Source: Pelotomaculum sp. (GTDB taxonomy: Bacteria; Bacillota; Desulfotomaculia; Desulfotomaculales; Pelotomaculaceae). From it: a stretch of DNA of 64,000 bases. Location of the stretch: positions 2,029-66,028 of the forward strand of contig JALHFC010000006.1 of NCBI GenBank assembly GCA_022839445.1, given 5' to 3'. The position numbers and the translations under genes were made by a program. Positions 1 through 19,833 of this stretch are shown here, piece by piece; position 1 is the first letter of the stretch; each line of letters begins with the position of its first letter. The notes beneath the pieces are model-generated. The model was not told where the DNA came from and did no database searches. It was given only the letters and a program-made list of their open reading frames with translations.

Positions 1-1
1 A

Positions 2-730
2 GCTGGAGAGGGGTTTCCTCATTTTGAGGCGATGAGTGGCTCGTGCAAGTTGGCAAAAAAGTCCCTGTCGCCTGATCTTGTTAGAAAACTAGAAAAAGAC
101 GGCGTTTTGGTGGTAACTTTGCCAAAACATTTGCACAGAAGAGAACACTTGGCCCGCAAGGCTTGCCAGCAATACGCCATCGACGAGTTTGCCGAAAATT
201 TAATCATCCTGGATACCGGGTATGCAAAACTGATGACTCCATTTTTCCCCCTAGATGTCTTGCGCACCCTGGAAGGTTTCCAGGACGCATGTTATGCCGA
301 CCCATATTCCGGTGGCAAGGGGAATTCCGTTCGATTTATGGCCATGGCGCCCTGTGACGACAGTCTAAAGGTTGCCGGGGTCGACAACCTGTTTTGTGCC
401 GGTGAAAAGGCCGGCTTGCTTGTAGGACACACAGAGGCGATAGCGACCGGATTTTTGGCCGGCCACAACGCCGCCAGGCTTATCGCCGGCAAAGGACCGC
501 TACTCCTTCCCGCTGAACTGGCTTGCGGGGACATTATTTCGTATATGCATGAGGAGATGGAACACCCCGGGGGTTTGGGTAAAAAATATACTTTTTCAGG
601 CTCGGTATATTTTCAGCGAATGCAAGAGTTGGGCCTGTACACGTTGGATATTCCGGCAATAAAAAAAAGAGTAAATAAAACGGGGTTAAAAGGTATTTTC
701 AAAAAGCGCCTGTTACACAACAAGTGTTGA
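2..730 (+). CDS. FAD-dependent oxidoreductase, C-terminal part (5' end outside window)
   Basis: The reading frame is open to the window edge. The segment NLFCAGEKAGLLVGHTEAIATGFLAGHNAA resembles the C-terminal FAD-binding segment of GidA/TrmFO-like flavoproteins. Confidence 0.45.
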   Translation, partial: AGEGFPHFEAMSGSCKLAKKSLSPDLVRKLEKDGVLVVTLPKHLHRREHLARKACQQYAIDEFAENLIILDTGYAKLMTPFFPLDVLRTLEGFQDACYADPYSGGKGNSVRFMAMAPCDDSLKVAGVDNLFCAGEKAGLLVGHTEAIATGFLAGHNAARLIAGKGPLLLPAELACGDIISYMHEEMEHPGGLGKKYTFSGSVYFQRMQELGLYTLDIPAIKKRVNKTGLKGIFKKRLLHNKC

Positions 731-767
731 AACATAATCGCCTGTTTTACTTGTCTTCCATAATATG

Positions 768-796
768 TACTATTTGCCAATAGGACTTCATAGAGT
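768..796 (+). promoter_or_regulatory. possible sigma-E-type sporulation promoter upstream of spmA
   Basis: tACTATT (768-774), a 14-nt spacer, then CATAGAGT (789-796), compared with the recalled consensus kmATATT-N14-CATACAnT. In B. subtilis spmA/B are sigma-E dependent. Confidence 0.3.
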
Positions 797-832
797 AAAA
801 GTAGACAAGCATGGGAGGCAGGGGGGACCGGT

Positions 833-1423
833 ATGGTAAATTTTATCTGGCTGGGCATGATTGTTTTCGGAATCATTGTTGCGGGCGCCAACGGCAATAT
901 TGAAGCAGTAACCAGGGCCGCCCTGGATGGCGCCGACAGCGCCGTTAAAATATCTATTAGCCTAATAGCTATTATCACCTTTTGGCTGGGAATCATGAAA
1001 CTGGCTGAAGAGGCGGGGCTGGTGCGGGCGCTGGCCTGGCTAGCGCGCCCGGTGATGCGCTTTCTTTTTCCCAGTGTGCCGAAAGACCACCCGGCCATGG
1101 GGGCGATCGTCATGAACCTGAGCGCCAACATCCTTGGTCTTGGTAACGCGGCGACGCCCATGGGGTTGATCGCCATGCGGGAGTTGCAAAAGTTAAACCG
1201 GGGCCGTGATACGGCGTCGGACGCCATGTGTACATTTTTGGCTTTAAATACATCCTGCATTACTTTGATCCCCACCACGATAATCGGCATCCGCTTGCTT
1301 TACGGTTCGGCCGACCCGACAGAAATCGTGGGACCGACCATTATGGCCACCGCTTTTAGCATGTGTGTGGCAGTTGTGGTGGATCGGATATTGCGCCGTT
1401 TGTATTCCGGCCGGAGGTGGTAG
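833..1423 (+). CDS. spmA: spore maturation protein A (nucleoside-recognition domain membrane protein)
   Basis: 196 aa and polytopic, with typical SpmA length and sequence. It lies directly upstream of spmB. RBS GGGAGGCAGGGGGG. Confidence 0.9.
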   Translation: MVNFIWLGMIVFGIIVAGANGNIEAVTRAALDGADSAVKISISLIAIITFWLGIMKLAEEAGLVRALAWLARPVMRFLFPSVPKDHPAMGAIVMNLSANILGLGNAATPMGLIAMRELQKLNRGRDTASDAMCTFLALNTSCITLIPTTIIGIRLLYGSADPTEIVGPTIMATAFSMCVAVVVDRILRRLYSGRRW

Positions 1424-1426
1424 CGG

Positions 1427-1963
1427 ATGTTTGGTCTGATCACTGAACTGTCCCGCTGGGCCATACCGGTGGTCCTGCTCATGGTGCCCCTCATTGCTGC
1501 CCTACGCGGGGTAAAAGTATATGAAACCTTTGTAGGCGGGGCCGAAGCAGGGTTTGCCACGGCCGTTAAAATTATCCCCTACCTGGTGGCAATGATGGTG
1601 GCCATAAGCATCTTTCGCGCTTCAGGAGCCATGGAAGCCCTAGTAATGTTCCTATCCCCCTTCCTCAATATAATCGGACTGCCGGCCGAGGTGTTGCCCC
1701 ATGCCATTATGCGCCCGCTTTCAGGCGGGGCGGCCCTCGGTATTGCCTCGGATACTATTAAAACCTACGGGCCGGATAGCTTTATCGGGCGCCTGGTATC
1801 CACCATGCAGGGCAGTTGCGACACTACCTTTTACGTGCTCACCCTATATTTCGGTTCCGTCGGCATCTGCAAATACCGTTATTCGATTATCCTGGGCCTG
1901 GTAGCCGACTTGACGACACTCGCAGCTTCAATTTTTATAGTAAGGACCATTTTTGGGATTTGA
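1427..1963 (+). CDS. spmB: spore maturation protein B
   Basis: 178 aa membrane protein located 3 nt after the spmA stop, forming the canonical spmAB pair. Confidence 0.9.
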   Translation: MFGLITELSRWAIPVVLLMVPLIAALRGVKVYETFVGGAEAGFATAVKIIPYLVAMMVAISIFRASGAMEALVMFLSPFLNIIGLPAEVLPHAIMRPLSGGAALGIASDTIKTYGPDSFIGRLVSTMQGSCDTTFYVLTLYFGSVGICKYRYSIILGLVADLTTLAASIFIVRTIFGI

Positions 1964-2183
1964 CCAGCCACGGAAACGCCAACCATGGGGACGGTGGCTT
2001 TGGCTGGTATTGCCTAATGGAAACTAGGCGCTACAGGGAACGCGACCAGGTTTTAGCCCGATCGAAAGGCCATAGAGGAGGTTACCGTTCATCAAGCTGC
2101 CCGTTTGATCAATCCTGGTGGGTAGTGCCTATCCTAGACCAGCCAAATCCACCGTCCCCGTGGCAGGTGCCCGTGGCAGGTGC
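1964..2183 (+). ncRNA. candidate structured RNA: about 217-nt imperfect rod-like hairpin (6S-like; MITE not excluded)
   Basis: Nested helices 1964-1973/2171-2180, 1977-1980/2166-2169, 1983-1997/2149-2163 (15 bp), 1999-2008/2138-2147, 2025-2032/2124-2131 and 2045-2050/2114-2119. An asymmetric internal bubble lies at 2009-2024 versus 2132-2137. Three G.U pairs (G1978.U2168, U1986.G2160, G2030.U2126) work only on the + strand transcript. Confidence 0.4.
2158..2183. repeat. perfect tandem duplication of a 13-mer (CCGTGGCAGGTGC x2) in the 3' arm of the hairpin
   Basis: 2158-2170 and 2171-2183 are identical by direct reading. Confidence 0.9.
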
Positions 2184-2470
2184 AGAATTATAGCGGGATT
2201 TGTCGCAAATTAAATCTATGCGGCTCCAAGGATATTGTTAATCCACGTTGAAACTACTATATGCGATCCTATTACCCGTAAAGATGGAGTGAATATGATG
2301 GCTGATAAGAAGCTGGATCAAGACGGCGTTATTATTACCTATATCGACATTGAGCCTATTAAGAAGTTGGCCCTGACCGAGGAAGCCCGTGAGTAAGACC
2401 GGGCGACACGTAACAAAGCCGGGCTAGTGGCGCGACTGTTTGAATGTGGTTTGTATAAGAGGTGATGTTG

Positions 2471-3718
2471 ATGGCAATTTATGTTAAGGAAACAGGTACT
2501 AAGTTGGTTGAACCGGGCGGGCGCCGGCAGCACGATGGTCCTCAAAAGGGTAGAACCCAAAGCCAATGGGAGGGGTTGGAAACCAGGTACCACTGCTTGA
2601 TGGCGGAATGCCAGGCGCTCCGGGACACCCTTGAAGAATTGGAAGAGTCCCGCAACCGTTATGCAGTCCTCTACGATTATGCTCCGGTAGGTTATGCCAC
2701 TTTAGATAACCAAGGGCGCATTAAGGACATTAACTTAGCGGGAGCTTCAATGTTTGGCATGGAACCATTAAAACTTATCGATATGCCGATGAGCGCTTAC
2801 GTAGTTAAGAGCGATATAAATCTGTTTCTTGAGCACTTGCGCCGTTGTAAACAATCTAATCAAAAAGTGTCAACAGAACTTAGCTTATTGTCCAGAAACG
2901 GCCGTCCTGTCCAGGTGCAACTTCTAAGTGTTCCGTATAGCTGCTCAGGTGGTAGCGCCCTTTGCTACAGGACTATTTTCACAGACATCACGGAAAGCAA
3001 GCTATATAAAAAAGAAATGGCCCGCCTCGACCGGCTTCATCTCGTTGGCGAGATGGCCGCAGGCATCGCCCACGAGATTAGAAACCCGATGACGACAATA
3101 CGTGGTTTCCTGCAATTATTTACAGAAAATAAAGACCTGTCCAATTACAAGGGGCACCTGGATTTGATGATTGAAGAGCTTGACCGGGCAAATTCCATTA
3201 TTAGCGAGTTCCTTTCCTTGGCCAGGAATAGAACCGTGGAATTAAAGGATCAAAACCTGAACACACTGATTAAAAACATTTTCCCGCTGCTACAGGCGGA
3301 CGGCCTGGTTACGGACAAGTCTGTGGAGTTGGACCTGCAGGACGTGCCCGGACTGAAGCTGGATGGAAAAGAGATCCGCCAACTGGTTCATAATCTGGTA
3401 AGAAACGGCATGGAAGCTATGCCTTCTTACGAAACTCTGATAATAAGGACATACATAGAAAATGGTGAAATTGTTTTGGCGATAGTGGACCGGGGCGGCG
3501 GTATCCCCCTAGAAATTGCTGAAAAGATCTGGACGCCGTTTTTCACTACCAAGGATACCGGTACCGGGCTAGGCCTAGCGGTCTGCTATAGCATTGCCAG
3601 GCGGCATAACGCCAGGATAGATTTTGAAACAGGCAAGGGAGGTACAACTTTTTTTGTAAGGTTTGGTATACAAGAAGCACATCAGCGCACTTTCACCTGT
3701 ACTCCGGAAACCGCCTAA
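2471..3718 (+). CDS. orphan PAS-domain sensor histidine kinase (sporulation-kinase-like)
   Basis: Coiled coil, then a PAS domain ([16 protein letters not shown]...TDITESK). H-box [18 protein letters not shown] box LVRNGMEAM and G boxes DRGGGIP / GTGLGLAV are present. No response regulator is adjacent. The start could be 2462 or 2465; ATG 2471 has the best RBS spacing (AGAGGTG). Confidence 0.85.
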
Positions 3719-4120
3719 ACATAGGTACATAAAGAAACCGTGGGTATTTATCCCCGGCGGAACGTCACTGCGCTGAGGGTTTTTTGCTGGACATAGACGT
3801 GGACTGCCTTGGCTACCGCTAGGGTAATATGATGTTGCCTGCAGGATTTCGTGATCCTTCTTTGAATGCCCGTTTTTAAATTAATCATAGCCACCTTTTC
3901 CCCGGCTATGATATTTACCAAACCCCCTATTTGAATTGCAAATTAAAATATATGCAACTTTTATATATAGAATAGTGCTTGAAGTTGAAGGAATCTTTTG
4001 TATAAAACAGAATATAATTATTGTTCCAAATTTGCTTTTAAAAAAACATCCGAATTTGTACAGATCAAAGGTGCGAGCGGGAACAATAACGATTATTAAC
4101 ACTCTTGGAGGTAGTTTATT

Positions 4121-5101
4121 ATGTGGAGAACCAGGGGCATATTCCTGCTGGTCATGTCCGTGTTTCTTTTTGCCGCCGGCTGTGGGCCGGGCGGCAGTAA
4201 AATGCAGGACAGCCCGGCTAAACCGGAAAAAATTGTAGTGCAAGCGCCCGTGGCGCCCCCGACTACGCCGCTCTTTAAATTTGCCAAGGACGGCGACTTA
4301 AACGGGGTAAGACTTGAGCTTATCTTGTACAAATCGGTGGAAGAGGCAACCACCAGGATAGCCAAGGGCGAGGCTGATTTCACGGTGCTGCCCTTAAACG
4401 TTGCCGCCAAGCTATACAACAAGCAGGTGGACATATCCCTGGCTAACGTCAGCACCTGGGGTATTCTGTATCTTTTGACCACGGACGACCGGCTCGCCAC
4501 ATGGCAGGACTTGAAAGGTAAAGAGCTATATGTCGGCGCGCAGGGTTCCAGTCCCGATGTCCTCACCAGGTATTTCATCAGTAAAAACGGGATAAAAGAG
4601 GGAGATATCAAGCTTGCCTACCTTAACTCCCCGGAGATTGCCCAGCTGATGATCAACGGGCTGGTGAGTAACGCCGTATTGCCGGAGCCGCAGGCGACCC
4701 AGGTGTTAATGAACAACAGCCGGGCCCGCCTGGCCAGGGATTTTTATGAAGACTGGCAGGTTTTCGAAGGAAAGGATGCCAGGCTGCCCCAGGCCGGCAT
4801 GGTCGTCCGCAATGAATTTGCCCGCTTGTACCCCGGCGCCGTGGCGGAGTTTCAAAACGCCTATAAGGACGCCGTGGAATGGACCGTGGTAAACCCGGTA
4901 GAAGCTGCCCCGCTAGCGGCATCAAACATGAATATAGCGGCGCCGGTGTTTGTCAAGAGCATGGAAAAAACCCGCATATTTTTCTCCACCGGCGCAAAGG
5001 CCAGGGAAGATGTGAATACATATTTGTCCAGGCTGCTTAATATTTCGCCGGATATGGTGGGGGGAAAACTTCCGGATGAGAAATTTTTCCTCGCTGACTA
5101 G
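4121..5101 (+). CDS. ABC transporter substrate-binding lipoprotein, NMT1/THI5-like (NitT/TauT family)
   Basis: Signal peptide with lipobox LFAAGC. It resembles nitrate/sulfonate/bicarbonate-type binding proteins and is followed by the cognate permease and ATPase. Confidence 0.8.
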   Translation: MWRTRGIFLLVMSVFLFAAGCGPGGSKMQDSPAKPEKIVVQAPVAPPTTPLFKFAKDGDLNGVRLELILYKSVEEATTRIAKGEADFTVLPLNVAAKLYNKQVDISLANVSTWGILYLLTTDDRLATWQDLKGKELYVGAQGSSPDVLTRYFISKNGIKEGDIKLAYLNSPEIAQLMINGLVSNAVLPEPQATQVLMNNSRARLARDFYEDWQVFEGKDARLPQAGMVVRNEFARLYPGAVAEFQNAYKDAVEWTVVNPVEAAPLAASNMNIAAPVFVKSMEKTRIFFSTGAKAREDVNTYLSRLLNISPDMVGGKLPDEKFFLAD

Positions 5102-5828
5102 GGGCCTGGCGCCCCTTTTCGGATTAATACTTTTTATTTTGCTGTGGCAGCTGGCATCAGGTTACTACCACCGGGTTATTTTACCTCCCCCTGTGGAAGT
5201 GGCCCGGTCCGCCGTTAAGCTAGTGGTGAGCGGGCAGCTTTGGGAGCAGGGGGGGCAGACACTGGCCCGCGGTTTGACCGGTTTCGGGCTGGCTGTTATA
5301 GTTGGTCTGCCCCTGGGCCTGTTAATTGGCCTTAGCCCTTTGATATCAAGCCTTTTTAGGCCGCTCGTAGTAGGCCTGCAGGTAACGCCGCTCGTTTCCT
5401 GGCTGCTACTGGCCATGATCTGGCTTGGTTTTAGCAAGGTACCGTCTTTTGTGGTTTTCGTGACGACCATCCCGCTGATTATTATTAACACTGTCCAGGG
5501 AGTAAAAAATATCGACGTCCACCTGCTGCAGATGGCTAAGGTGTTTCAAATTAACCGCTCTCGTCTTTTCCGGGAAATTTACCTGCCCCAGGTCCTGCCC
5601 TACCTGCTGGCCGGTGTTATCACCGCCCTGGGCACTACCTGGAAAGCCGTGGCGATGGCCGAGTTCCTTAGCGTTTCCACGGGAATTGGCGCCAAGATGG
5701 CGGTATCGCGGATAAACCTGGAAACATCGGACCTTTTTGCCTGGACCTTTGTCCTGATCACCCTTGGTTTGCTTACAGACAGGCTTTTGAACTACCTTGT
5801 GAATAAAAGACTGCGCCACTGGATGTGA
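5076..5828 (+). CDS. ABC transporter permease (NitT/TauT family)
   Basis: 250 aa with 6 predicted TM segments and a BPD-transporter EAA-like loop (AKVFQINRSRLFREIYLPQVLP). Confidence 0.85.
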   Translation: MRNFSSLTRGLAPLFGLILFILLWQLASGYYHRVILPPPVEVARSAVKLVVSGQLWEQGGQTLARGLTGFGLAVIVGLPLGLLIGLSPLISSLFRPLVVGLQVTPLVSWLLLAMIWLGFSKVPSFVVFVTTIPLIIINTVQGVKNIDVHLLQMAKVFQINRSRLFREIYLPQVLPYLLAGVITALGTTWKAVAMAEFLSVSTGIGAKMAVSRINLETSDLFAWTFVLITLGLLTDRLLNYLVNKRLRHWM

Positions 5829-5835
5829 TTAATTT

Positions 5836-6603
5836 TTGATTGCTTTAGAACAAGTGCATAAGACATTGGGGCAGACCAAGGTCCTGGATGACTTTTCCCT
5901 GCATGCTGAAAAAAATGAAATTACCTGTATTATAGGCCCTTCGGGATGCGGCAAAACAACAACTCTGCAACTGCTGGCCGGGCTGGAACAGCCTGACGCA
6001 GGAAGGATCGTCGGGACACAAGGCATGCGCGTAAGCTATGTCTTCCAGGACCCAAGGCTATTGCTTTGGAAAACCGTGGCCCAAAACGTCGCGTTTGTTT
6101 TGCAGGACACCGTGCCCCTCGCCCGTCAGCAGGAACTGATCAGGAAGTACCTGACCATGATGGGCCTTAATGAGTACCGTGACAGTTACCCCAAGGCTTT
6201 AAGCGGGGGGATGAAGCAGAGGCTGGCCCTGTGCCGCGCTTTTGCCTACCCGCACGACCTTTTGTTGATGGACGAGCCTTTTAAGTCGCTGGATACCCCC
6301 TTGCGCTTGGGGCTGGTCTGGCAAGTGGCCAGGATGTGGCAGGAAAAATCCGGCACGATCATATTTGTCACTCATGACATTATGGATGCCCTGCTTTTGG
6401 GGCACAGGGTGATAGTCCTGTCCGCCCGCCCCGCCACCGTGCTGGACGACGTGAGGATAGACGCGCCGCCGGCGCAAAGAAACGTTCTGCAGGCGCCGCT
6501 TCCTGCCATACACGCCAGGCTACTCGACCTGCTGGAGGGGGAAAATAAAAAATATTTTCCGGACCTTTATATGACAGGGGGGAGTTCGAAAACGCCGGGA
6601 TAA
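5836..6603 (+). CDS. ABC transporter ATP-binding protein (NitT/TauT family)
   Basis: Walker A GPSGCGKTT, signature LSGGMKQRLAL and Walker B LLLMDEP. The start codon is TTG. Confidence 0.9.
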   Translation: MIALEQVHKTLGQTKVLDDFSLHAEKNEITCIIGPSGCGKTTTLQLLAGLEQPDAGRIVGTQGMRVSYVFQDPRLLLWKTVAQNVAFVLQDTVPLARQQELIRKYLTMMGLNEYRDSYPKALSGGMKQRLALCRAFAYPHDLLLMDEPFKSLDTPLRLGLVWQVARMWQEKSGTIIFVTHDIMDALLLGHRVIVLSARPATVLDDVRIDAPPAQRNVLQAPLPAIHARLLDLLEGENKKYFPDLYMTGGSSKTPG

Positions 6604-6727
6604 AACGGCGTGGAGACGGGGCTCAAAGAGTCCCACATGAAAGGAGTGGTTGCGCCACCGGCCCCGTGCCAGGCGCAGGTAACCGCGAGACCGCCACCTT
6701 ACTATTTTATTTGAAAGGAGCTTTTTC

Positions 6728-7360
6728 ATGGAAGTTGTTATGGAACGGCTTCAGAAGGTTATGGCCCGGGCCGGGGTGGCTTCCAGGCGGCGCTGCGAGG
6801 AGATGATCGCCGCGGGTATGGTCAAAGTTAATGGGAAAGTAGTTGCCGCGCTTGGAACAAAAGTAGACCCTGCCAGAGACAAAATACAGGTAGGGGGTAA
6901 AACTTTATTCCTTACGCCGCGCAAGTATTATATTCTCATGTACAAGCCCCGCGGCTATGTTTCAACGCTATCCGATGAAAAGGGCAGAAAAAAAGTGACC
7001 GACCTAACTCACCCTAAGCACCATGTGCGGAAAACCTACCTTGTGAGGGTGAAGGGCTTGCCAGCTTGGGAAAAATTAGAGCAAATGACCGGGGGACTGG
7101 TCCTAGAAGACGGCCCGACCGCGCCGGCTGCAGTTCGGCTGGCGGGTGAGCGAGAAGGAAACGCGCTCCTGGAAATTACGATAAGCGAGGGGCGCAACCG
7201 GCAGATAAGGCGGATGTGTGAGCATATCGGCCACCCCGTGCTGCGTCTGAAGCGCACTAGATTTGCCAATCTAAGCATAGAAGGCCTCAAGCCGGGACAG
7301 TGCTGTCATCTAACCGGGGAAGAAGTAGATAAGCTAAAAAAGCTGGTTTTGAATGAATAA
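6728..7360 (+). CDS. rluB: RluB/RsuA-family 23S rRNA pseudouridine synthase lacking the catalytic-Asp motif (in-frame deletion)
   Basis: An N-terminal S4 domain (RLQKVMARAGVASRRRCEEMI) and the C-terminal half (HPKHHVRKTYLVRVKG...EGRNRQIRRMCE) are present. The family block around ...YPVGRLDxxSEGLLLLTNDGEL... is missing between D92-L93 and T94 (about nt 7004-7009). Confidence 0.8.
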   Translation: MEVVMERLQKVMARAGVASRRRCEEMIAAGMVKVNGKVVAALGTKVDPARDKIQVGGKTLFLTPRKYYILMYKPRGYVSTLSDEKGRKKVTDLTHPKHHVRKTYLVRVKGLPAWEKLEQMTGGLVLEDGPTAPAAVRLAGEREGNALLEITISEGRNRQIRRMCEHIGHPVLRLKRTRFANLSIEGLKPGQCCHLTGEEVDKLKKLVLNE

Positions 7361-7598
7361 GCGAGCGAACAAATGTAGCAATAAAGCCTCCACACTTCTT
7401 GAATTCTACCTGTAGGGCTTTATTTGCTGGCTTTACCAGAGCCCCGCAAGATGATTCCTTTTCGCTCCTTATAGACAGGCAGGACTTTTCGCGGTGTTTT
7501 TTGTGATATGTAAAATAACTCAAACAAGAAGGGTTTTCCATAAGTCGAATAGAATATCTAAAATTGTTGACACCCAGTGACGGTGGGAGGGAAAGCTT

Positions 7599-8057
7599 TT
7601 GATAAACGACCAGGGTGAGGGTGGAAGGGACGGCATCCTCGTTAAGGTTCGTCTTGATTTTAAAGGTGCAGGCAAGCCGGGACGATTTTTATTCGGGGGC
7701 AAGTCTACGGATAAAGTTGCGGAAGAGTCAAGAGAACAGCAGGTCGCCATATTCCGGAACGTGCCGCTGCAGGGAATACATATTGAAGATATTGATATGA
7801 GCGCCGAGGTGTACACGGTGTTTGACGACATATCCAACAATGAAATTGCCTTTGCCCCGTTGGTCCTTACCATCAAGGCCGACAGTTTGGAAAATGTGAT
7901 CAAGTTTATAACCAGGGATGACTTTAGAAAAATTGAAATCCTTGATCCGGCCCATATCACTCTAAGCCATAGCGGTATTGAAAGACTTCTCTTTAGAGTG
8001 CACGAGGAAACAAAGGAATACAGAATGAGGCTGGAAAAAAGGTACAATTTAAGGTAA
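7599..8057 (+). CDS. hypothetical protein (152 aa)
   Basis: TTG start 7 nt after RBS GGGAGGGA. No family was recognised. Confidence 0.5.
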   Translation: MINDQGEGGRDGILVKVRLDFKGAGKPGRFLFGGKSTDKVAEESREQQVAIFRNVPLQGIHIEDIDMSAEVYTVFDDISNNEIAFAPLVLTIKADSLENVIKFITRDDFRKIEILDPAHITLSHSGIERLLFRVHEETKEYRMRLEKRYNLR

Positions 8058-8224: not shown

Positions 8225-8253
8225 TTGCTTTTCAAAAGTCTCTCAGCTATAAT
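8225..8253 (+). promoter_or_regulatory. sigma-A-type promoter for the HutP-family gene
   Basis: TTGCTT (8225-8230), a 17-nt spacer, then TATAAT (8248-8253). Confidence 0.55.
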
Positions 8254-8339
8254 ATGTTTTAAGCACTGTTTTATGGAACAAATTTGTCGAACACTCCTAA
8301 TGTGGAGTGTGTTTTGATCTATAACAAGGGGGGAGCGTT

Positions 8340-8759
8340 GTGACCCTTTTTGGGAGTCGTAAAATAGCCCGTGTGGCGGTTGAAATGGCGATGACTGAGA
8401 GCAGGGAACAGGAGCGGGAATACAAGCAGCGATTTTTTAAGGAAGGAATAAGGACAGCGGCTGTTGACTACGGCGGCGATTTTATTTCTTCTGTGAATAA
8501 GATCATAGAAAGGGCTGTTGTGGCGTCCAAGCGGGAGGGAGTGATCAAAGAGATGCACGCCGACGAGGGGGCTGTGGCCGGGGCGACGCGGGAAGCGCTG
8601 TCTCAGGTTATGCCGAAGGCAATTGGTTTTAACGTCGGCGGTAAAATCGGGATCGCCCGGAAGGAAGATCACATCAGCGTGGCAATATTTTTTGGAGTAG
8701 GGTTGCTGCATTTGGACGAGGTGGCCATCGGTTTGGGCCACAGGGCAGTCCGGTCCTAA
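8340..8759 (+). CDS. HutP-family RNA-binding (antiterminator-type) protein
   Basis: 139 aa. By-eye alignment with B. subtilis HutP over the full length: MTL..R.I.R, ASKREGVI vs ASKKSGVI, ATREAL vs ATMEAL, ISVAIFFGVG vs IAVSLYGTIG, and a GLGH C-terminus. GTG start after GGGGGGAG. Confidence 0.75.
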   Translation: MTLFGSRKIARVAVEMAMTESREQEREYKQRFFKEGIRTAAVDYGGDFISSVNKIIERAVVASKREGVIKEMHADEGAVAGATREALSQVMPKAIGFNVGGKIGIARKEDHISVAIFFGVGLLHLDEVAIGLGHRAVRS

Positions 8760-8787
8760 AAGATGCTTTTTGGGGGGTGACGGTAGA

Positions 8788-9162
8788 ATGGGCGCAATAT
8801 TATTAAGAGGCGTTCGCGGCGCTATTACGGTAGAACGGAATGACGCGGGGGAAATATTTTCAGCTACCAGGGAACTTTTAAAGGCCATGATAAAGGAAAA
8901 TGACATTGATCCCGAAGATATCGCAAGCGTTATTTTTACAGTTACACCGGATTTGAACGCAGGGTTTCCGGCGACAGCGGCGCGGGAGATGGGTTGGCGG
9001 TATGTCCCGCTCCTTGGCGCAACAGAAATAAATGTTCCCGGAATGCCCGGCAAATGTATCAGGGCGCTGGTCCATGTAAATACAGGTAAGTCTCAAAGAG
9101 AATTGAAGCATATATACTTGAGGGACGCTGCCCGGCTGAGGGTGGACCTGGTGCCTCAATAG
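8788..9162 (+). CDS. aroH: chorismate mutase, AroH class
   Basis: LRGVRGAITVERN...VIFTVTPDLNAGFPA...YVPLLGATEINVPG...CIRALVHVN matches monofunctional AroH. ATG 8788 is preferred over the upstream TTG 8770. Confidence 0.9.
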   Translation: MGAILLRGVRGAITVERNDAGEIFSATRELLKAMIKENDIDPEDIASVIFTVTPDLNAGFPATAAREMGWRYVPLLGATEINVPGMPGKCIRALVHVNTGKSQRELKHIYLRDAARLRVDLVPQ

Positions 9163-9788: not shown

Positions 9789-9817
9789 TTGACGGTTGTT
9801 TGTGTAACGTGTAAAAT
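9789..9817 (+). promoter_or_regulatory. sigma-A-type promoter of the trp operon
   Basis: TTGACG (9789-9794), a 17-nt spacer, then TAAAAT (9812-9817). Confidence 0.55.
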
Positions 9818-9819
9818 AA

Positions 9820-9873
9820 AAGTTGAGCAGAGATTAGTTTAGAAGAGCATAAGTTGAGCTTAGCTGAGATGAG
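9820..9873 (+). promoter_or_regulatory. array of 11 phased NAG triplets (TRAP-type RNA-binding-protein site) in the trpE leader
   Basis: Triplet starts: 9820 AAG, 9825 GAG, 9830 GAG, 9835 TAG, 9840 TAG, 9845 GAG, 9851 AAG, 9856 GAG, 9861 TAG, 9866 GAG, 9871 GAG. Spacers are 2,2,2,2,2,3,2,2,2,2 nt. Confidence 0.8.
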
Positions 9874-9900
9874 TTTGCGTATTTTCATTTGGGAAAATGT

Positions 9901-9936
9901 GCCGGCGCTCATTTGAGCGCCGGTTTATTTATTTTT
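9901..9936 (+). terminator. intrinsic terminator (attenuator) immediately upstream of trpE
   Basis: A 9-bp GC-rich stem CCGGCGCTC / GAGCGCCGG (9902-9910 / 9915-9923) with loop ATTT, followed by TTTATTTATTTTT. The trpE start is at 9954. Confidence 0.85.
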
Positions 9937-9953: not shown

Positions 9954-11456
9954 TTGATTAATCCAGTCAGGGAAGGGTACTTATCCTTAAGTAAAACTTG
10001 CAATTTAATACCGGTTAGTGATGAGATTAACGCCGATCTGGATACGCCGATCAGCATTTATAAAAAGGTAGCGCCGGCAGGTCCGGCCTATCTTTTGGAG
10101 AGCGTAGAGGGTGGTGAAATTTTAGCCCGCTATTCATTTATCGGGTTTGACCCTTTCCTAACTTTTATTTCGCAGGGGGAAGAGTCGCATGTTTACGGCC
10201 CCGGCTCGAAAAAAATAATCCCGGGCCCTCCCTTAGAAGCTTTGGAGCGTGTTATTGGCAGTTATAGTGTTTACCAAGCGCCCGGTTTACCCCGTTTTTT
10301 CGGGGGCGCTGTAGGCTATATCAGCTATGATGTGGCGCGTTTTACCGGGAAAATTGAGACGCCGCAAGGTGGTATGCCCGGCTTGCCTGGCTGTTACTTT
10401 ATTTTTGCCGGTACGGTCCTTATTTTTGACCACGTCAAGCGGGCTTTAACCGTAGTTGTAAACAGCCTGCCCGGGGCAGATCCAGGGGGCGCGTATGATC
10501 TAGCCAGGGAGCGGATAAAAAAGATAGTTTGGGCGATTCAAAGTAATGCGCCAATAAAAAAAGATACCGTCCGCAGTCAAGCTTGCGCTTATGGGAAGTT
10601 GGAAGCGAACATTGACAGTGGTGAATTTATGGCGAAAGTGGCGCAGGCCAAGGAATACATAAAATCCGGCGATGTCCTGCAGGTAGTCTTGTCCCGGCGC
10701 CTGCGCGCGCCCTTTTGCGGTGATCCGTTCGATGTATACAGGAAATTGCGGGCGTTAAACCCGTCCCCTTATCTTTATTACCTCGATTTTGACGAGGTCA
10801 AGGTGGCGGGCTCTTCCCCGGAAATGCTGGTGAGGGTAGAGGGAACTACAGTAAGTACCTGTCCGATTGCGGGCACCCGGCCCCGGGGAGCAGACCGGGA
10901 GTCCGACCTGGCCCTGGCCAAGGAATTGCTTGGAGACGCCAAAGAAAGATCCGAGCACCTGATGCTGGTAGACCTGGGCCAAGATGATCTGGAAAAAGTA
11001 TGTGAAACCGGTAGCGTCGGGCTGGATCGGTTCATGGAAGTGGAAAAATTTTCCCATGTTATGCACCTGGTTTCAAGCTTGTGCGGCAACCTGGCGCCAG
11101 GCAAAAACTGTTTTGACGCTTTAAAAGCATGTTTCCCCGCCGGTACCGTGACAGGCGCTCCAAGGGCGCGTGCAATGGAGATCATCAACGAGCTGGAGCC
11201 TGACGGGCGGGGTATTTATGCCGGGGCAACCGGGTACATCGGGTTTTCGGGGAATATGGACTTTGCCATAACCATCAGGACCATAGTGATGCAGGAGGGG
11301 TACGCGTATGTGCAGGCCGGGGCCGGCATCGTGGCCGGTTCCAACCCTAAAGCGGAGTACGAGGAAACGGTAAACAAGGCTCGCGCGCTTTTAACTACTC
11401 TTTGGGAAGTTGAAGCAGATTGGGTAAGCGCCTATGGGCAGTGTGAGGGGCTTTAG
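9954..11456 (+). CDS. trpE: anthranilate synthase component I
   Basis: 500 aa with chorismate-binding enzyme motifs (GTRPRG, GAPRARAMEII, GIYAGATGY). TTG start after AAGGGGAGGG. Confidence 0.95.
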   Translation: MINPVREGYLSLSKTCNLIPVSDEINADLDTPISIYKKVAPAGPAYLLESVEGGEILARYSFIGFDPFLTFISQGEESHVYGPGSKKIIPGPPLEALERVIGSYSVYQAPGLPRFFGGAVGYISYDVARFTGKIETPQGGMPGLPGCYFIFAGTVLIFDHVKRALTVVVNSLPGADPGGAYDLARERIKKIVWAIQSNAPIKKDTVRSQACAYGKLEANIDSGEFMAKVAQAKEYIKSGDVLQVVLSRRLRAPFCGDPFDVYRKLRALNPSPYLYYLDFDEVKVAGSSPEMLVRVEGTTVSTCPIAGTRPRGADRESDLALAKELLGDAKERSEHLMLVDLGQDDLEKVCETGSVGLDRFMEVEKFSHVMHLVSSLCGNLAPGKNCFDALKACFPAGTVTGAPRARAMEIINELEPDGRGIYAGATGYIGFSGNMDFAITIRTIVMQEGYAYVQAGAGIVAGSNPKAEYEETVNKARALLTTLWEVEADWVSAYGQCEGL

Positions 11457-11516
11457 AAAAGTCAGGCGGGTGTTAAGTTTTTACTAGCTTAGAGCTTAGA
11501 AAAGGAGAGTTCTGAA

Positions 11517-12551
11517 ATGAAAGAGGCTATATTAAGAGTCGTTTCGGGGAGGCATTTAACTGAAATGAAGGCAATGTCTGTAATGGAGCAAATCATGGAG
11601 GGGCGGGCCAGTTCCGCTCAGATTGCCTCCCTGCTGACCGCCATGCGGCTAAAAGGCGAAACTGCCGAAGAAATTACCGGTTTTGCCAGGGTGATGAGAC
11701 GGATGTCGACGCCAATCAAGTCGTCTTACCCCATTCTAGTGGATACTTGTGGCACAGGGGGAGACGGCGCCGGGACCTTTAATATTTCTACAACTGCGGC
11801 TTTTGTAGTGGCCGGGGCCGGGGCGCCTGTAGCCAAGCACGGCAACCGGTCGGTGTCCAGCCGTAGCGGCAGCGCCGATGTTCTGGAGGAACTGGGGGTC
11901 AGGGTTGACCTGGATCGGGACGCTATCGAGGATTGTCTGGAACAGGTGGGGATGGCCTTTCTTTTCGCGCCGATGTTACACCGCGCCACGGGGCACGCTA
12001 CGGGTCCCCGCCGCGAGATCGGGATCAGGACCGTTTTTAATATTCTAGGTCCCTTGACCAACCCGGCCGGCGCTAGGGCGCAGGTACTCGGTGTATACAG
12101 CCCTTCGCTGGCGGAATTGATCGCGCGCGTGCTGGCCAAACTGGGCGCCACCCGAGCGTTTGTGGTCCATGGCGCAGGCGGGCTGGACGAAATTTCCTTG
12201 GCCGGTCCTTCGGTCCTGTGTGAAGTAAAAGGTGGATCGGTGCGCAAGGGTATCCTGGATCCGGCCCGGTTTGGATTTCGGTACACGCCGGTTTCTACCC
12301 TGGCCGGGGGTTCCCCCGGGGAAAACGCCGCGATCACACGCCGGATTCTGGAAGGTGAAAAAGGGCCGCGCCGGGATGTCGTTGTTTTAAACGCTGCTTT
12401 GGGAGTGGTAGCTGCGGGCAAGGCCGGCGGTATAGCCGAAGGTTTGGAAATATCCGCCCGCAGTATCGATGACGGACGGGCTCTGGCTAAACTAAATGAA
12501 CTGGTTACATTTACAAAGCGATACGCGCCTGTAAAAACCGCAGCCCTATGA
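11517..12551 (+). CDS. trpD: anthranilate phosphoribosyltransferase
   Basis: 344 aa; VDTCGTGGDGAGTFNIST and KHGNRSVSS motifs. Confidence 0.95.
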   Translation: MKEAILRVVSGRHLTEMKAMSVMEQIMEGRASSAQIASLLTAMRLKGETAEEITGFARVMRRMSTPIKSSYPILVDTCGTGGDGAGTFNISTTAAFVVAGAGAPVAKHGNRSVSSRSGSADVLEELGVRVDLDRDAIEDCLEQVGMAFLFAPMLHRATGHATGPRREIGIRTVFNILGPLTNPAGARAQVLGVYSPSLAELIARVLAKLGATRAFVVHGAGGLDEISLAGPSVLCEVKGGSVRKGILDPARFGFRYTPVSTLAGGSPGENAAITRRILEGEKGPRRDVVVLNAALGVVAAGKAGGIAEGLEISARSIDDGRALAKLNELVTFTKRYAPVKTAAL

Positions 12552-13360
12552 TTTTAAATAAAATAATTGCCAACAAAAAAGTTGAGCTGCTAAAGCGTAA
12601 GGAAATGCTTCCTTTTAGCGTGCTGAAAGGAACGTTATCGGATGTTGCCCTGCCGCTACCGCTGGCGCCGGCCTTACGCCGGCCGGGCCGGGTGGCAATC
12701 ATCGCCGAAACAAAAAAAGCATCGCCTTCCAAGGGAATAATATGCGACAACTTTGATCCCGTAAAGCTGGCGAGGGAATATGAAACAGCCGGGGCGGCAG
12801 CTATATCGGTGCTCACCGAGGAAAAGTTTTTTCTCGGGCGCCCGTCTCATCTGGCAGGCGTTAAAAGGGCAGTTAAAATACCGGTTGTAAGGAAGGACTT
12901 TATCATCGATCCTTACCAGGTTTACGAGTCCCGCGCGCTGGGCGCCGACGCCATACTTTTGATCGTGGCTGCTCTTTCTTTCGAGCAACTCAAGGAATTA
13001 ATCGAACTTGCCAGGGAATTGGGCCTGTCAGGCCTGGTCGAAGTACACACGGAACCGGAATTGGAACACGCTTGCCGTGCCGGCGCGGACATTATCGGGA
13101 TTAACAACCGTGACTTGAACACTTTTAAAACTGATCTAAACAGGACATTCGAACTAATGAAGTTTATTGACAAGCAAAAATATATTGTGGTTTCCGAAAG
13201 TGGTATTAAAAGCCATACCGACTTAATCGGGCTAAAAGACTGCGGAGTGCATGCGGCGCTGGTAGGTGAAGCCCTAGTAGGAAGCGCCTTTCCGGGTGAA
13301 GCGCTAAAAAGGCTGGGCGGCTGTTCGGGCGAAAGGGGGGCTGGTTTGTGCCGGGCTTAA
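12548..13360 (+). CDS. trpC: indole-3-glycerol-phosphate synthase
   Basis: 270 aa with IIAETKKASPSKG, RKDFIIDPYQ and GINNRDL motifs. There is an ATGA overlap with trpD. Confidence 0.93.
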   Translation: MILNKIIANKKVELLKRKEMLPFSVLKGTLSDVALPLPLAPALRRPGRVAIIAETKKASPSKGIICDNFDPVKLAREYETAGAAAISVLTEEKFFLGRPSHLAGVKRAVKIPVVRKDFIIDPYQVYESRALGADAILLIVAALSFEQLKELIELARELGLSGLVEVHTEPELEHACRAGADIIGINNRDLNTFKTDLNRTFELMKFIDKQKYIVVSESGIKSHTDLIGLKDCGVHAALVGEALVGSAFPGEALKRLGGCSGERGAGLCRA

Positions 13361-13971
13361 AACAGGTAAAGGTTAAAATTTGCGGGATTATGGACTCTGT
13401 TACGGCATTGGCGGCGGTAGAGGCCGGGGCGGACGCCCTGGGGTTTGTTTTTGCTCCCGGCCCGAGGCGTGTGGAGAAAGAAAAAGTAAGATCCATCTGT
13501 GCTTTGTTGCCTCCTTTTGTTTCCCGGGTAGGTGTTTTTGTCAATGCGCCGGCTGAAGTGGTTAAAGAGACCGCTCTCTACTGTGGGTTGGATACACTGC
13601 AGCTGCACGGGGACGAAACACCGGAATACTGTTTGTCACTCCCGTACAAGATCATAAAGGCTTTCCGTGTACGGGACTCGGTTTCGCTTCAGACAATTAA
13701 GCGCTATCGCTGTGCGGCGGTTTTGCTGGATACTTACGTGCAGGAATTGCGTGGAGGTACGGGAAAAAGTTTTGATTGGAGTCTTGCCGTGGCGCCGGTG
13801 CTGTCCGTGCCGGTGATCCTAGCCGGGGGGCTCCACCCGGAAAACGTAGAGGAGGCCGTGGCTACCGCCCGTCCATATGCTGTGGATGTATCCAGCGGGG
13901 TGGAAACCGGCGGTAAAAAGGATATAGAGAAAATAAAGCTGTTTATAGAGCGGGCAAGGGGGTTATGTTAG
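13348..13971 (+). CDS. trpF: phosphoribosylanthranilate isomerase
   Basis: 207 aa; VKICGI...GADALGFVF...LQLHGDE...ILAGGL pattern. Confidence 0.9.
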
Positions 13972-16034: not shown

Positions 16035-16063
16035 TTGCCATCTAATCGCCTGTGTGTTAAGAT
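16035..16063 (+). promoter_or_regulatory. sigma-A-type promoter upstream of aroF
   Basis: TTGCCA (16035-16040), a 17-nt spacer, then TAAGAT (16058-16063). Confidence 0.5.
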
Positions 16064-16179
16064 AAAATATACTTGTAGGATGGTTTTTTGGTTGGGAAGG
16101 CAGCGCCTGCGGGCGCACAGGAGAAGAACGGCAGGATGGCAAGGGAGGCGATGAGATTGTTTGCTTATGGTCCGACTTG

Positions 16180-16210
16180 AGTACTCCTCCGGGAGTGCTT
16201 TTTTGTTTTT
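16180..16210 (+). terminator. intrinsic terminator inside the aroF leader (attenuator of unknown class)
   Basis: An 8-bp stem 16180-16187 / 16192-16199 (AGTACTCC/GGAGTGCT, one G.U) with loop TCCG, then TTTTTGTTTTT. It lies 72 nt upstream of the aroF ATG. Confidence 0.7.
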
Positions 16211-16281: not shown

Positions 16282-17298
16282 ATGATTATAGTCATGGATC
16301 ACCGGGTTGGTGATGATAAGATAGAAGCCGTACTCGTCCGGCTGGAGAGGCTTGGTTTTCAGATCCACTTGTCACGTGGTGTAGAGCGCACGATCATCGG
16401 CGCTATCGGGGAAAGAGGCCACCTGATCGGGGTGGACCTGGAGGTTATGCCGGGTGTGGAAAAAGTTGTCCCCATCCTACAGCCATATAAATTGGCCAGC
16501 AGGACATTCAAAGAGGAAGGAACTGTAATTAGGGTTGGGAACTTGGAGATAGGCGGTGACACCATCCATGTCATGGCCGGTCCGTGCGCTGTGGAAAGCA
16601 GGGAACAACTCCTGTGCGCAGCGCAGATGGTCAAAGATGCCGGCGCTACTATCCTACGGGGTGGGGCTTTTAAACCAAGGACCTCCCCTTATTCATTCCA
16701 CGGGCTGGAAGAAGAGGGTTTGGAACTGCTGGCGGAAGCCCGCGAGGCGACCGGCCTTTTGATCGTGACCGAGGTAATGGACGCCAGGACGCTGCCCCTG
16801 GTTGCCCGGTATACCGACATCCTTCAAATAGGGGCGCGCAATATGCAGAACTTCTTTTTGCTGAGGGAAATAGCCAAAGTAGACAAACCCGTTGTGTTGA
16901 AGAGGGGTCCGTCGGCTACCATTGAAGAATGGCTGATGGCGGCGGAATATATCATGTCCGGCGGTAATTATAACGTAATTCTGTGTGAGCGGGGCATACG
17001 CAGCTTTGAAAGCTATACCAGGAACACCCTCGATCTCACCTCGGTGCCGGTGGTGAAGTACCTTTCCCACCTGCCTGTAATTGTCGATCCCAGTCACGCT
17101 ATCGGTAAGTGGCGTTTTGTGCCGCCGATGGCAAAAGCCGCCCTAGCGGCAGGCGCCGATGGGTTGATTGTAGAAGTACACCCGAATCCCGTTGAAGCTT
17201 TGTGCGACGGTCCCCAATCCTTGATGCCGGAGAAATTTGCCGCGATGATGAACGATTTGAGGCAAGTTGCCGCAGTGATGGGCAGGAGGATGCCTTGA
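16282..17298 (+). CDS. aroF: 3-deoxy-7-phosphoheptulonate (DAHP) synthase, type I-beta with N-terminal ferredoxin-like regulatory domain
   Basis: 338 aa; [20 protein letters not shown] and DPSH motifs, plus an N-terminal extension of about 75 aa as in Thermotoga-type DAHPS. Confidence 0.92.
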
Positions 17299-18596: not shown

Positions 18597-19833
18597 TTGG
18601 ATCTGTATATTAAACCGGTCTGCGGGTTGCGGGGTACAGTAGCTATACCGGGGGACAAATCCATCTCTCACCGGGCGGTAATGCTGGGTGCCCTCCATTG
18701 CCTGCTTTAGAAAATTGGGAGTGGAGATTACAGGACCGGAGGATGGGGTTGTTACCGTATCCGGCCGGGGATTGGATGGCCTGAGAGAGCCGTGCGACAT
18801 CCTTGACGCCGGCAATTCCGGCACTACCATGCGGCTGATCCTGGGTGTTTTGGCCGGGCAACCATTCTTTAGTGTAATCACCGGCGATGATTCCTTGCGC
18901 CGGCGTCCTATGGCCAGGGTAACTCACCCGTTGGGACTGATGGGGGCGCGGATTTCCGGCAGGCAGGACGGCGCTCTGGCGCCCCTGGCCATACAGGGCG
19001 GCAGGCTGGACCCGATCCACTATTATTCCCCGGTGGCAAGCGCCCAGGTTAAGTCGGCGGTTTTGCTGGCCGGTCTTTTTGCGGCAGGGGAGACTGCGGT
19101 AACCGAACCATACCTCTCTAGGGACCATACCGAGCGGATGCTCAGGTATTTTGGGGCGGAAGTGGATGTGTCGGGCGGCGCCATACGGCTAAAAGGCCGC
19201 CCACGCCTTTCGGGCCGGGTACTTAAAGTGCCCGGGGATATATCGTCTGCCGCCTTTTTGATGGTAGCGGCTTCGGCGATACCGGGTTCGGACCTTATCT
19301 TGGCCGGGGTAGGGGTGAATCCCACCAGGGCCGGCATTGTCGACGCGCTTGCAGAAATGGGCGCACATATTGAAATGCTAAATACCCGCCAGGAGGGCGG
19401 TGAACCTGTGGCTGATATCCGGGTGCGCTATAATGGAAGGCTATGTGGCGTATCGCTTGGAGGGGAAATAATCCCCCGCCTTATTGATGAGATACCTGCC
19501 CTAGCTGTGGCGGCTGCGCTGGCCGAGGGTGAAACGGAAATTCGTGACGCCGCCGAGCTAAAGGTAAAGGAGAGCGACCGGATAGCTGCTGTAGTCCGGC
19601 TGCTAACCGGTTTTGGGGCCGCTGTGGAAGAAAGGCCGGACGGCCTGATGGTGAGGGGGAAGCGCACGATAAACGCCTGTATTTGTGAAAGCCACGGGGA
19701 CCACCGTATTGCCATGGCGGCAGCTGTAGCCGGGATGCTGGCCGGAGGGGAAACAGTAGTGCGGGGGGCCGAATGTATTGCTGTGTCCTTTCCTGGATTT
19801 AATGATGTATTAAAAAAAATCAAGGTAGAATAA
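18597..19833 (+). pseudogene. aroA: 3-phosphoshikimate 1-carboxyvinyltransferase (EPSP synthase), disrupted by a ~50-nt deletion/frameshift near codon 33
   Basis: Frame 1 (18597-18710) encodes [33 protein letters not shown], then stops. Frame 2 from 18694 continues [12 protein letters not shown]...LDAGNSGTTMRL... to 19833. The family segment between GAL and the (S/T)I.CFRK motif, about 17 aa, is absent. Confidence 0.8.

Follow-up and report, generated by a model that had tools for sequence, protein, structure and literature searches.

A diverged HutP-family protein next to chorismate mutase as a candidate regulator of aromatic biosynthesis genes in Clostridia

Searching a contig of Pelotomaculum sp. 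allowed us to identify a small gene encoding a diverged relative of the Bacillus RNA-binding protein HutP, which sits next to the chorismate mutase gene aroH in many Clostridia. Conserved triplet repeats in nearby leaders suggest that it controls entry into aromatic amino-acid synthesis, a role not yet described for this family. The sequence analysed, hereafter the window, is a stretch of 64,000 nucleotides (GenBank assembly GCA_022839445.1, contig JALHFC010000006.1, positions 2,029 to 66,028 of the forward strand). A sequence-only reading of the window had pointed to a HutP-family gene at the head of an aromatic supraoperon with no hut genes nearby, and this observation is confirmed. Its interpretation, that the protein is an aromatic amino-acid (perhaps Trp) sensing attenuation protein for the trp/aro leaders and hence a functional analogue of TRAP, is supported only in part. 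The features of the HutP-like/aroH region are as follows.

8225..8253 (+), promoter of the HutP-like/aroH unit, TTGCTT, 17 nt, TATAAT
8291..8316 (+), terminator-like leader hairpin with stem ACACUCC and GGAGUGU and loop UAAUGU (8291-8310) plus U tract, 24 nt upstream of the GTG start
8340..8759 (+), HutP-family protein of 139 aa (aroH-linked clade)
8782..8791 (+), one repeat unit, GGUAGAAUGG, whose AUG (8788-8790) is the aroH start codon
8788..9162 (+), aroH, monofunctional type I chorismate mutase
8829..8838 (+), second repeat unit, GGUAGAACGG, inside aroH codons T-V-E-R, 47 nt after the first and of uncertain function

The ORF at 8340-8759 starts with GTG behind a G-rich ribosome-binding site and matches Pfam HutP (PF09021) at E 1.1e-52, with 178 bits against a cut-off of 25 and coverage of model positions 1-128 of 128, while no NCBIfam model matches it meaningfully. 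The protein is 100% identical to a 'HutP family protein' of a Desulfotomaculaceae MAG, 86% identical to the Pelotomaculum thermopropionicum protein, and 80-95% identical to proteins of Pelotomaculum, Desulfotomaculum and Desulforamulus. Identity to B. subtilis HutP is about 26% over the full length, and a profile that includes the protein finds the HutP crystal structures. An AlphaFold model of the monomer (pLDDT 85, pTM 0.84) is predicted to share the HutP fold of four antiparallel strands flanked by helices. Foldseek gave TM 0.71-0.77 to HutP, and the top 11 PDB matches are all HutP structures, with TM 0.66-0.77, whereas the next-best fold has TM 0.37 or less.

The residues reported to form the L-His/Mg2+ site of HutP (Kumarevel et al. 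2005) are His73, His77 and His138, which coordinate Mg2+, together with Arg88 and Arg98. In the profile alignment all three histidine columns are replaced, by Gly77, Gly81 and Leu125, while Arg88 aligns to Pro92 and Arg98 falls in a deletion. An invariant His124 sits one column before the His138 column. The sequence-only reading had counted two of the three histidines as replaced and had aligned LEHE to LDEV; LEHET instead aligns to LHLDE. It had also been assumed that aroH starts at 8770, but the start is ATG 8788.

The promoter was read directly from the sequence. It was not listed by a promoter scan because the -35 hexamer matches only 3 of 6 positions, but the same TTGC(T/A)-N17-TATAAT arrangement recurs at the same position in relatives (loci L001, L005, L006, L007, L034 and L041; L numbers denote the related loci collected for comparison). 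Downstream, aroH (Pfam CM_1 E 5.6e-46; NCBIfam TIGR01796) is followed by a VTT/DedA gene, trpE, D, C, F, B, A, aroF, tyrA, aroA and cmk, all confirmed by Pfam. None of the ORFs of 300 aa or more in the window belongs to the histidase, urocanase, amidohydrolase or arginase families. The leader hairpin is real and conserved in relatives, as an ACUCC-loop-GGAGU plus a U run recurs upstream of the HutP-like gene in 12 loci and in aroF leaders in 10. Autoregulation through this hairpin, as the sequence-only reading allowed, is plausible in some relatives that carry repeats in this leader, but in this window no NAG units precede the hairpin.

In order to establish what the gene travels with, we scanned one genome per species with a motif from a 9-sequence alignment. 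This returned at least 571 confirmed relatives, of which the 80 best loci were kept and the window's proteins mapped onto them. The gene is followed directly by aroH in 73 of 79 evaluable loci, at a median distance of about 20 nt and often with an overlap, and these span Desulfotomaculales, Moorella, Syntrophomonadaceae, Syntrophaceticus, Thermincola, Desulfosporosinus, Ruminiclostridium and Acetivibrio. In contrast, trp genes follow in only 15 of 80, and 20 loci read simply HutP-like, aroH, cmk, plsC, ispH-rpsA. Complete genomes show the same picture. The conserved unit is therefore HutP-like plus aroH, and not HutP-like plus trp. The protein is more conserved than AroH in all 74 comparable loci, with median identity of 73% against 55%. 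More distant family members (35-41% identity) gave two informative contexts that differ from the aroH context, one in a tyrosine decarboxylase/tyrS cluster and one between a malic enzyme gene and an ABC transporter. Three other contigs were too short to be useful, and the L087 intergenic region showed only an ordinary terminator.

The stem of the leader hairpin (ACUCC/GGAGU) is shared with the terminator in the window's aroF leader, and across 1.15 Mb of loci this terminator type occurs almost only in those two leader classes. Upstream of the aroF terminators the leaders carry repeats of consensus GGYAGNAYGG, with NAG triplets every 8 nt. The elements of the window's aroF leader are as follows.

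16035..16063 (+), aroF promoter, TTGCCA, 17 nt, (TG)TAAGAT
16074..16083 (+), aroF leader site I, UGUAGGAUGG, about 5-10 nt from the predicted transcript start
16124..16148 (+), aroF leader site II, AAG-N5-CAG-N5-CAA in register, running into the G-rich GGGAGG
16179..16210 (+), aroF leader intrinsic terminator, GAGUACUCC-UCCG-GGAGUGCUU plus U tract (hairpin about -14 kcal/mol)
16282..17298 (+), aroF, DAHP synthase with N-terminal ferredoxin-like domain (Pfam DAHP_synth_1 and DAHP_snth_FXD), first gene of aroF-tyrA-aroA

The repeat is strand-specific, with 115 hits of GGYAGNAYGG on the gene strand, 24 on the opposite strand and about 22 in shuffles. Of the gene-strand hits, 49 are within 400 nt upstream of aroF, 14 are upstream of the HutP-like gene and 23 are at the aroH start. 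YAG-to-YAG spacing peaks sharply at 8 nt (YAG-N5), at 4.65 per kb in aroF leaders against 0.69 per kb in background. Two or more units in register are found in 26 of 30 aroF leaders and three or more in 16 of 30, compared with 1.1% and 0.4% of background 200-nt windows. A profile trained only on aroF site II returned 62 hits at E <= 10 in 1.13 Mb, of which 36 are in aroF leaders (several not in the training set), 8 in leaders of the HutP-like gene and 14 at or just inside aroH; only one of the 62 is on the opposite strand. In the full window the three best hits of this profile are, in order, 16124-16146, 8824-8840 and 8779-8794. No Rfam family matches these leaders at gathering or permissive thresholds, even at E <= 5. 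A metagenome scan with the three-unit pattern GYAGNAYGGYAGNAYGGYAGG gave only 1 aroF leader among 80 loci (L115), the rest being chance hits or simple octamer tandem arrays, and so says nothing about the regulon.

A typical aroF leader consists of a promoter, site I with 1-3 units near the 5′ end, a linker of 30-70 nt, site II with usually three units, the last running into a G-rich tract (YAGGGGRGG), and, after 20-35 nt, a terminator with a pyrimidine-rich 5′ arm. Site I is at the same place in L004, L005, L011, L014, L023, L024 and others, and site II of the window is the positional homologue of three-unit sites in relatives. In other genomes the clusters sit directly on ribosome-binding sites. 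Units overlap the aroH SD/AUG in 23 of 74 loci, with two or more in register in 14. Moorella has two clusters between the HutP-like gene and aroH, the second covering the SD and AUG, while L085 has four units ending in the aroH SD, L062 and L076 also have sites overlapping the aroH SD/AUG, and L040 and L051 have units over the aroF SD. In this window the elements are recognisable but weak, with single units at the aroH start and at aroF site I and a degenerate site II. The second unit within aroH occurs at the same position in L004, L005, L013 and L014, but could be a by-product of the conserved TVER peptide. Many Clostridium-type loci (HutP-like, aroH, cmk) show no units nearby; aroF lies elsewhere in those genomes.

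The trpE leader appears to be a separate, TRAP-type element. The region 9789-9934 has a promoter, 11 NAG triplets with 2-3 nt spacers (9820-9873) and a strong terminator. Equivalent arrays of 7-12 triplets precede trpE in 12 other loci and, among the loci compared, occur nowhere else. This is the geometry of TRAP (MtrB, PF02081), an 11- or 12-subunit ring reading 11 triplets with 2-3 nt spacers, and not that of the period-8 clusters. No TRAP gene is present in the window or in any of 85 related loci, as tblastn and a profile of 120 TRAPs found nothing in any frame of the window or of the related loci L001-L091. Two database searches for TRAP, one with a flattened query, listed only Bacillaceae among the top 120. 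A TRAP encoded elsewhere, which the sequence-only reading had itself raised as a counter-argument, remains the simpler explanation for trpE.

We favor, with moderate confidence, the hypothesis that the gene encodes a HutP-fold RNA-binding protein, presumably a hexamer, that has lost the histidine/Mg2+ site and serves as the attenuation and translation regulator of the common aromatic pathway. In this view, when loaded with an aromatic end product or branch-point metabolite (Phe/Tyr, prephenate or chorismate), it would bind clusters of NAG triplets spaced 8 nt apart, usually three per cluster and often in two clusters, as in (GGUAGGAU)3-type RNA. In aroF leaders, where the clusters lie 20-35 nt upstream of an intrinsic terminator, binding would favor termination, whereas at aroH, and in some genomes at aroF, the clusters overlap the Shine-Dalgarno sequence and start codon and binding would block translation. 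Sites over the SD/AUG could only repress, and the targets are biosynthetic, for which reasons we prefer a TRAP-like logic. The analysis itself establishes family membership, the predicted fold, the replaced ligand columns, the synteny, and the position, strand bias and periodicity of the repeat; that this protein binds the repeat, the identity of the ligand, the oligomer state and the sign of control are all inferred. The link between protein and motif is guilt by association, and every locus was selected for carrying the gene. Support for the antiterminator needed by a TRAP-like model is thin: RNAalifold finds only a conserved potential for pairing between the G-run and CUCC, a 4-bp helix of -0.3 kcal/mol with no compensatory changes, and neither duplex energies against shuffles nor pairing probabilities against shuffled sites discriminate. 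Equilibrium folding of the window's aroF leader always forms the terminator, with or without the sites blocked, although an alternative hairpin of -19.5 kcal/mol (16129-16191) can form before the 3′ arm is made.

Of the sequence-only interpretation, therefore, a HutP-family paralogue without a link to hut genes, with a replaced His/Mg2+ site, tied to aromatic amino-acid biosynthesis and probably working with TRAP-like logic is supported, while the proposed target (the trpE leader) and ligand (tryptophan) are not.

There are other possible explanations for these data. First, the same parts could act with opposite sign, the protein being a HutP-style antiterminator that, on sensing a starvation or precursor signal, binds the repeats and opens the terminator of the aroF leader and of its own. 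All characterised HutP proteins are positive regulators that defeat a terminator, the default formation of the terminator in equilibrium folds is as expected for a system that needs an activator, and the antiterminator has no covariation support. However, the repeats lie 20-35 nt upstream of the terminator rather than inside its 5′ arm, clusters overlapping the SD/AUG of aroH and aroF in several genomes could only repress, and biosynthetic operons are usually repressed by end products. We consider this a live but unlikely rival. Second, and slightly less likely still, the protein could be a partner or regulatory subunit of AroH, with the period-8 repeats read by some other factor or folding into an RNA switch of their own. 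The very tight, often overlapping coupling with aroH, the unusually strong sequence constraint and the many loci without repeats nearby would be in agreement with this, and AroH is trimeric while HutP has three-fold faces. Against it, the family's only known activity is binding NAG-repeat RNA, and NAG repeats in clusters of three are exactly what accompanies the gene. No HutP-AroH fusion was found among the longer family members, which are chimeric assemblies with unrelated partial domains, and the leaders show no stable conserved fold or Rfam match.

The hypothesis of the sequence-only reading, that the protein senses tryptophan and binds the trpE array as a TRAP substitute, is unlikely but not excluded. 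The HutP family reads NAG triplets, the array lies 1.1 kb downstream, and the searches described above found no TRAP gene near these loci. However, trp genes follow the gene in only 15 of 80 genomes, the arrays match the TRAP ring and not clusters of three, the repeats that track with the gene have a sharply defined 8-nt period, and mtrB orthologues may occur in some Clostridia. Finally, an ordinary histidine-responsive HutP acting on hut genes elsewhere, as suggested by the annotation 'hut operon positive regulatory protein' in some records, is effectively refuted by the context, with no hut genes among the ORFs of 300 aa or more in the 64 kb or in 80 related loci; the replaced ligand columns and the identity of only about 26% to B. 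subtilis HutP also speak against it.

Among known systems, B. subtilis HutP (PDB 1WMQ, 1VEA, 4OK9) is the closest imaginable analogue. It is a hexamer activated by L-His and Mg2+ that reads UAG-N4-UAG-N4-UAG in two clusters of three NAG triplets, one on each face, at the terminator between hutP and hutH, and it prevents termination. The present protein shares its Pfam family and predicted fold, is encoded by a promoter-proximal gene of the operon it is proposed to regulate, and has candidate operators of about three NAG triplets, often in two clusters separated by a linker and next to an intrinsic terminator, an arrangement consistent with a hexamer. It differs in the replaced ligand columns, which fit a different ligand, in a triplet period of 8 nt rather than 7 nt, in linkage to aroH and aroF rather than to hut genes, in sites that lie upstream of the terminator or over the SD/AUG rather than within the terminator, and in a predicted role of repressing biosynthetic genes rather than activating a catabolic operon. 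TRAP offers the same proposed logic, in that a small ligand-activated oligomer reads tandem NAG triplets and represses amino-acid biosynthetic genes both by transcription attenuation in a leader and by blocking SD/start codons, in the same aro/trp supraoperon neighbourhood. Its fold and family are unrelated, since the present protein matches only HutP and has no TrpBP domain (a beta-sandwich ring subunit in TRAP), and the repeats here have 5-nt spacers in clusters of about three, with aroF and aroH rather than trpE as proposed targets. PyrR is likewise a protein-mediated attenuator of a biosynthetic operon that also regulates the operon encoding it, and its binding upstream of a terminator shifts the choice between terminator and antiterminator, but it has a phosphoribosyltransferase fold and binds a structured hairpin, not single-stranded triplet repeats.

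In the literature searched, HutP is linked only to Bacillus hut operons, including in a 2025 review, no paper links HutP with chorismate mutase, and searches combining HutP with the aromatic pathway or with Clostridia found nothing relevant. The family and the type of candidate operator are the same as for HutP, while the ligand site, spacing and proposed regulon are new and the sign of control is probably the opposite. A bolder reading, which we consider unlikely, is that Clostridia carry a widespread, undescribed attenuation system built on the HutP fold, in which a hexamer reads period-8 NAG repeats and shuts down both entry into the shikimate pathway (aroF) and chorismate mutase (aroH) in response to prephenate or chorismate, the product and substrate of the co-translated AroH, rather than to an amino acid. 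In genomes without mtrB it could be the only NAG-reading protein and also serve the trpE array.

HutP and TRAP are textbook examples of proteins that read tandem RNA triplets, and each is known essentially from one operon type in Bacilli. If the present reading is right, the larger, unstudied part of the HutP family, with several thousand sequences in Clostridia, gets a function. It would also show how one fold was re-tuned to a new ligand, a new triplet spacing and the opposite regulatory sign, and would give anaerobic Firmicutes, including syntrophs and acetogens of biotechnological interest, a defined regulator and operator for DAHP synthase and chorismate mutase.

The leader of trpE, at window positions 9789-9934, is a complete TRAP-type attenuator, and consists of the following elements:

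9789-9817, promoter
9820-9873, 11 NAG triplets with 2-3 nt spacers
9901-9924, strong terminator, followed by a U tract

Similar arrays precede trpE in 12 related loci. No TRAP gene lies in the window or in any locus. The trp operon that follows (9954-13971) goes from trpE straight to trpD with no trpG, and it contains trpF. In contrast, the operon of P. thermopropionicum (locus L001) has trpG and no trpF.

Two terminator-like hairpins, located 8 kb apart in the window (8291-8316 and 16179-16210), share the stem ACUCC/GGAGU, and the same is true across genera. The hairpin in front of the HutP-like gene has no repeat units upstream of it in this window. Long simple tandem arrays of the same octamer, (GGCAGGAT)n or (GGTAGGAC)n, are carried by metagenome contigs that look GC-rich and non-Firmicute (L097 at 12690-12750, L117, L148 at 286-360, L151, and L140 at 800-1420). 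The arrays examined contain roughly 7 to more than 70 copies, and some end right at a Shine-Dalgarno sequence. No HutP-like gene was detected on these contigs.

Four other genes or ORFs of the window were noted:

6728-7360, rluB ORF of 210 aa
7599-8057, conserved ORF of 152 aa
18600-18700, region of the apparent aroA frameshift
43389-45074 (- strand), GH3-family protein

The rluB ORF is shorter than its counterparts of 240-309 aa in relatives and lacks the central part of the pseudouridine synthase domain, which looks like an in-frame deletion. The 152-aa ORF has no Pfam, NCBIfam or PDB match and lies between rluB and the HutP-like gene in most Desulfotomaculales and Syntrophomonadaceae loci, where it is often followed by a second ORF of about 155 aa with no Pfam hit. 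In the case of aroA, the gene appears frameshifted, as the N-terminal PGDKSISHR segment is in a different frame from ORF 18688-19833, which matches the EPSP synthase profile only from position 49. This is either an assembly error or a pseudogene. The GH3-family protein belongs to the plant auxin/jasmonate amido-synthetase family and is encoded next to an MFS transporter, which is unusual for a Firmicute.

A distant HutP-family member (35% identity) was found at locus L087 (positions 1-7954), where it sits in a cluster of tyrosine decarboxylase, amino-acid permease, Na+/H+ antiporter and tyrS, ahead of an aminotransferase. This context hints that other HutP paralogues serve other amino-acid systems.
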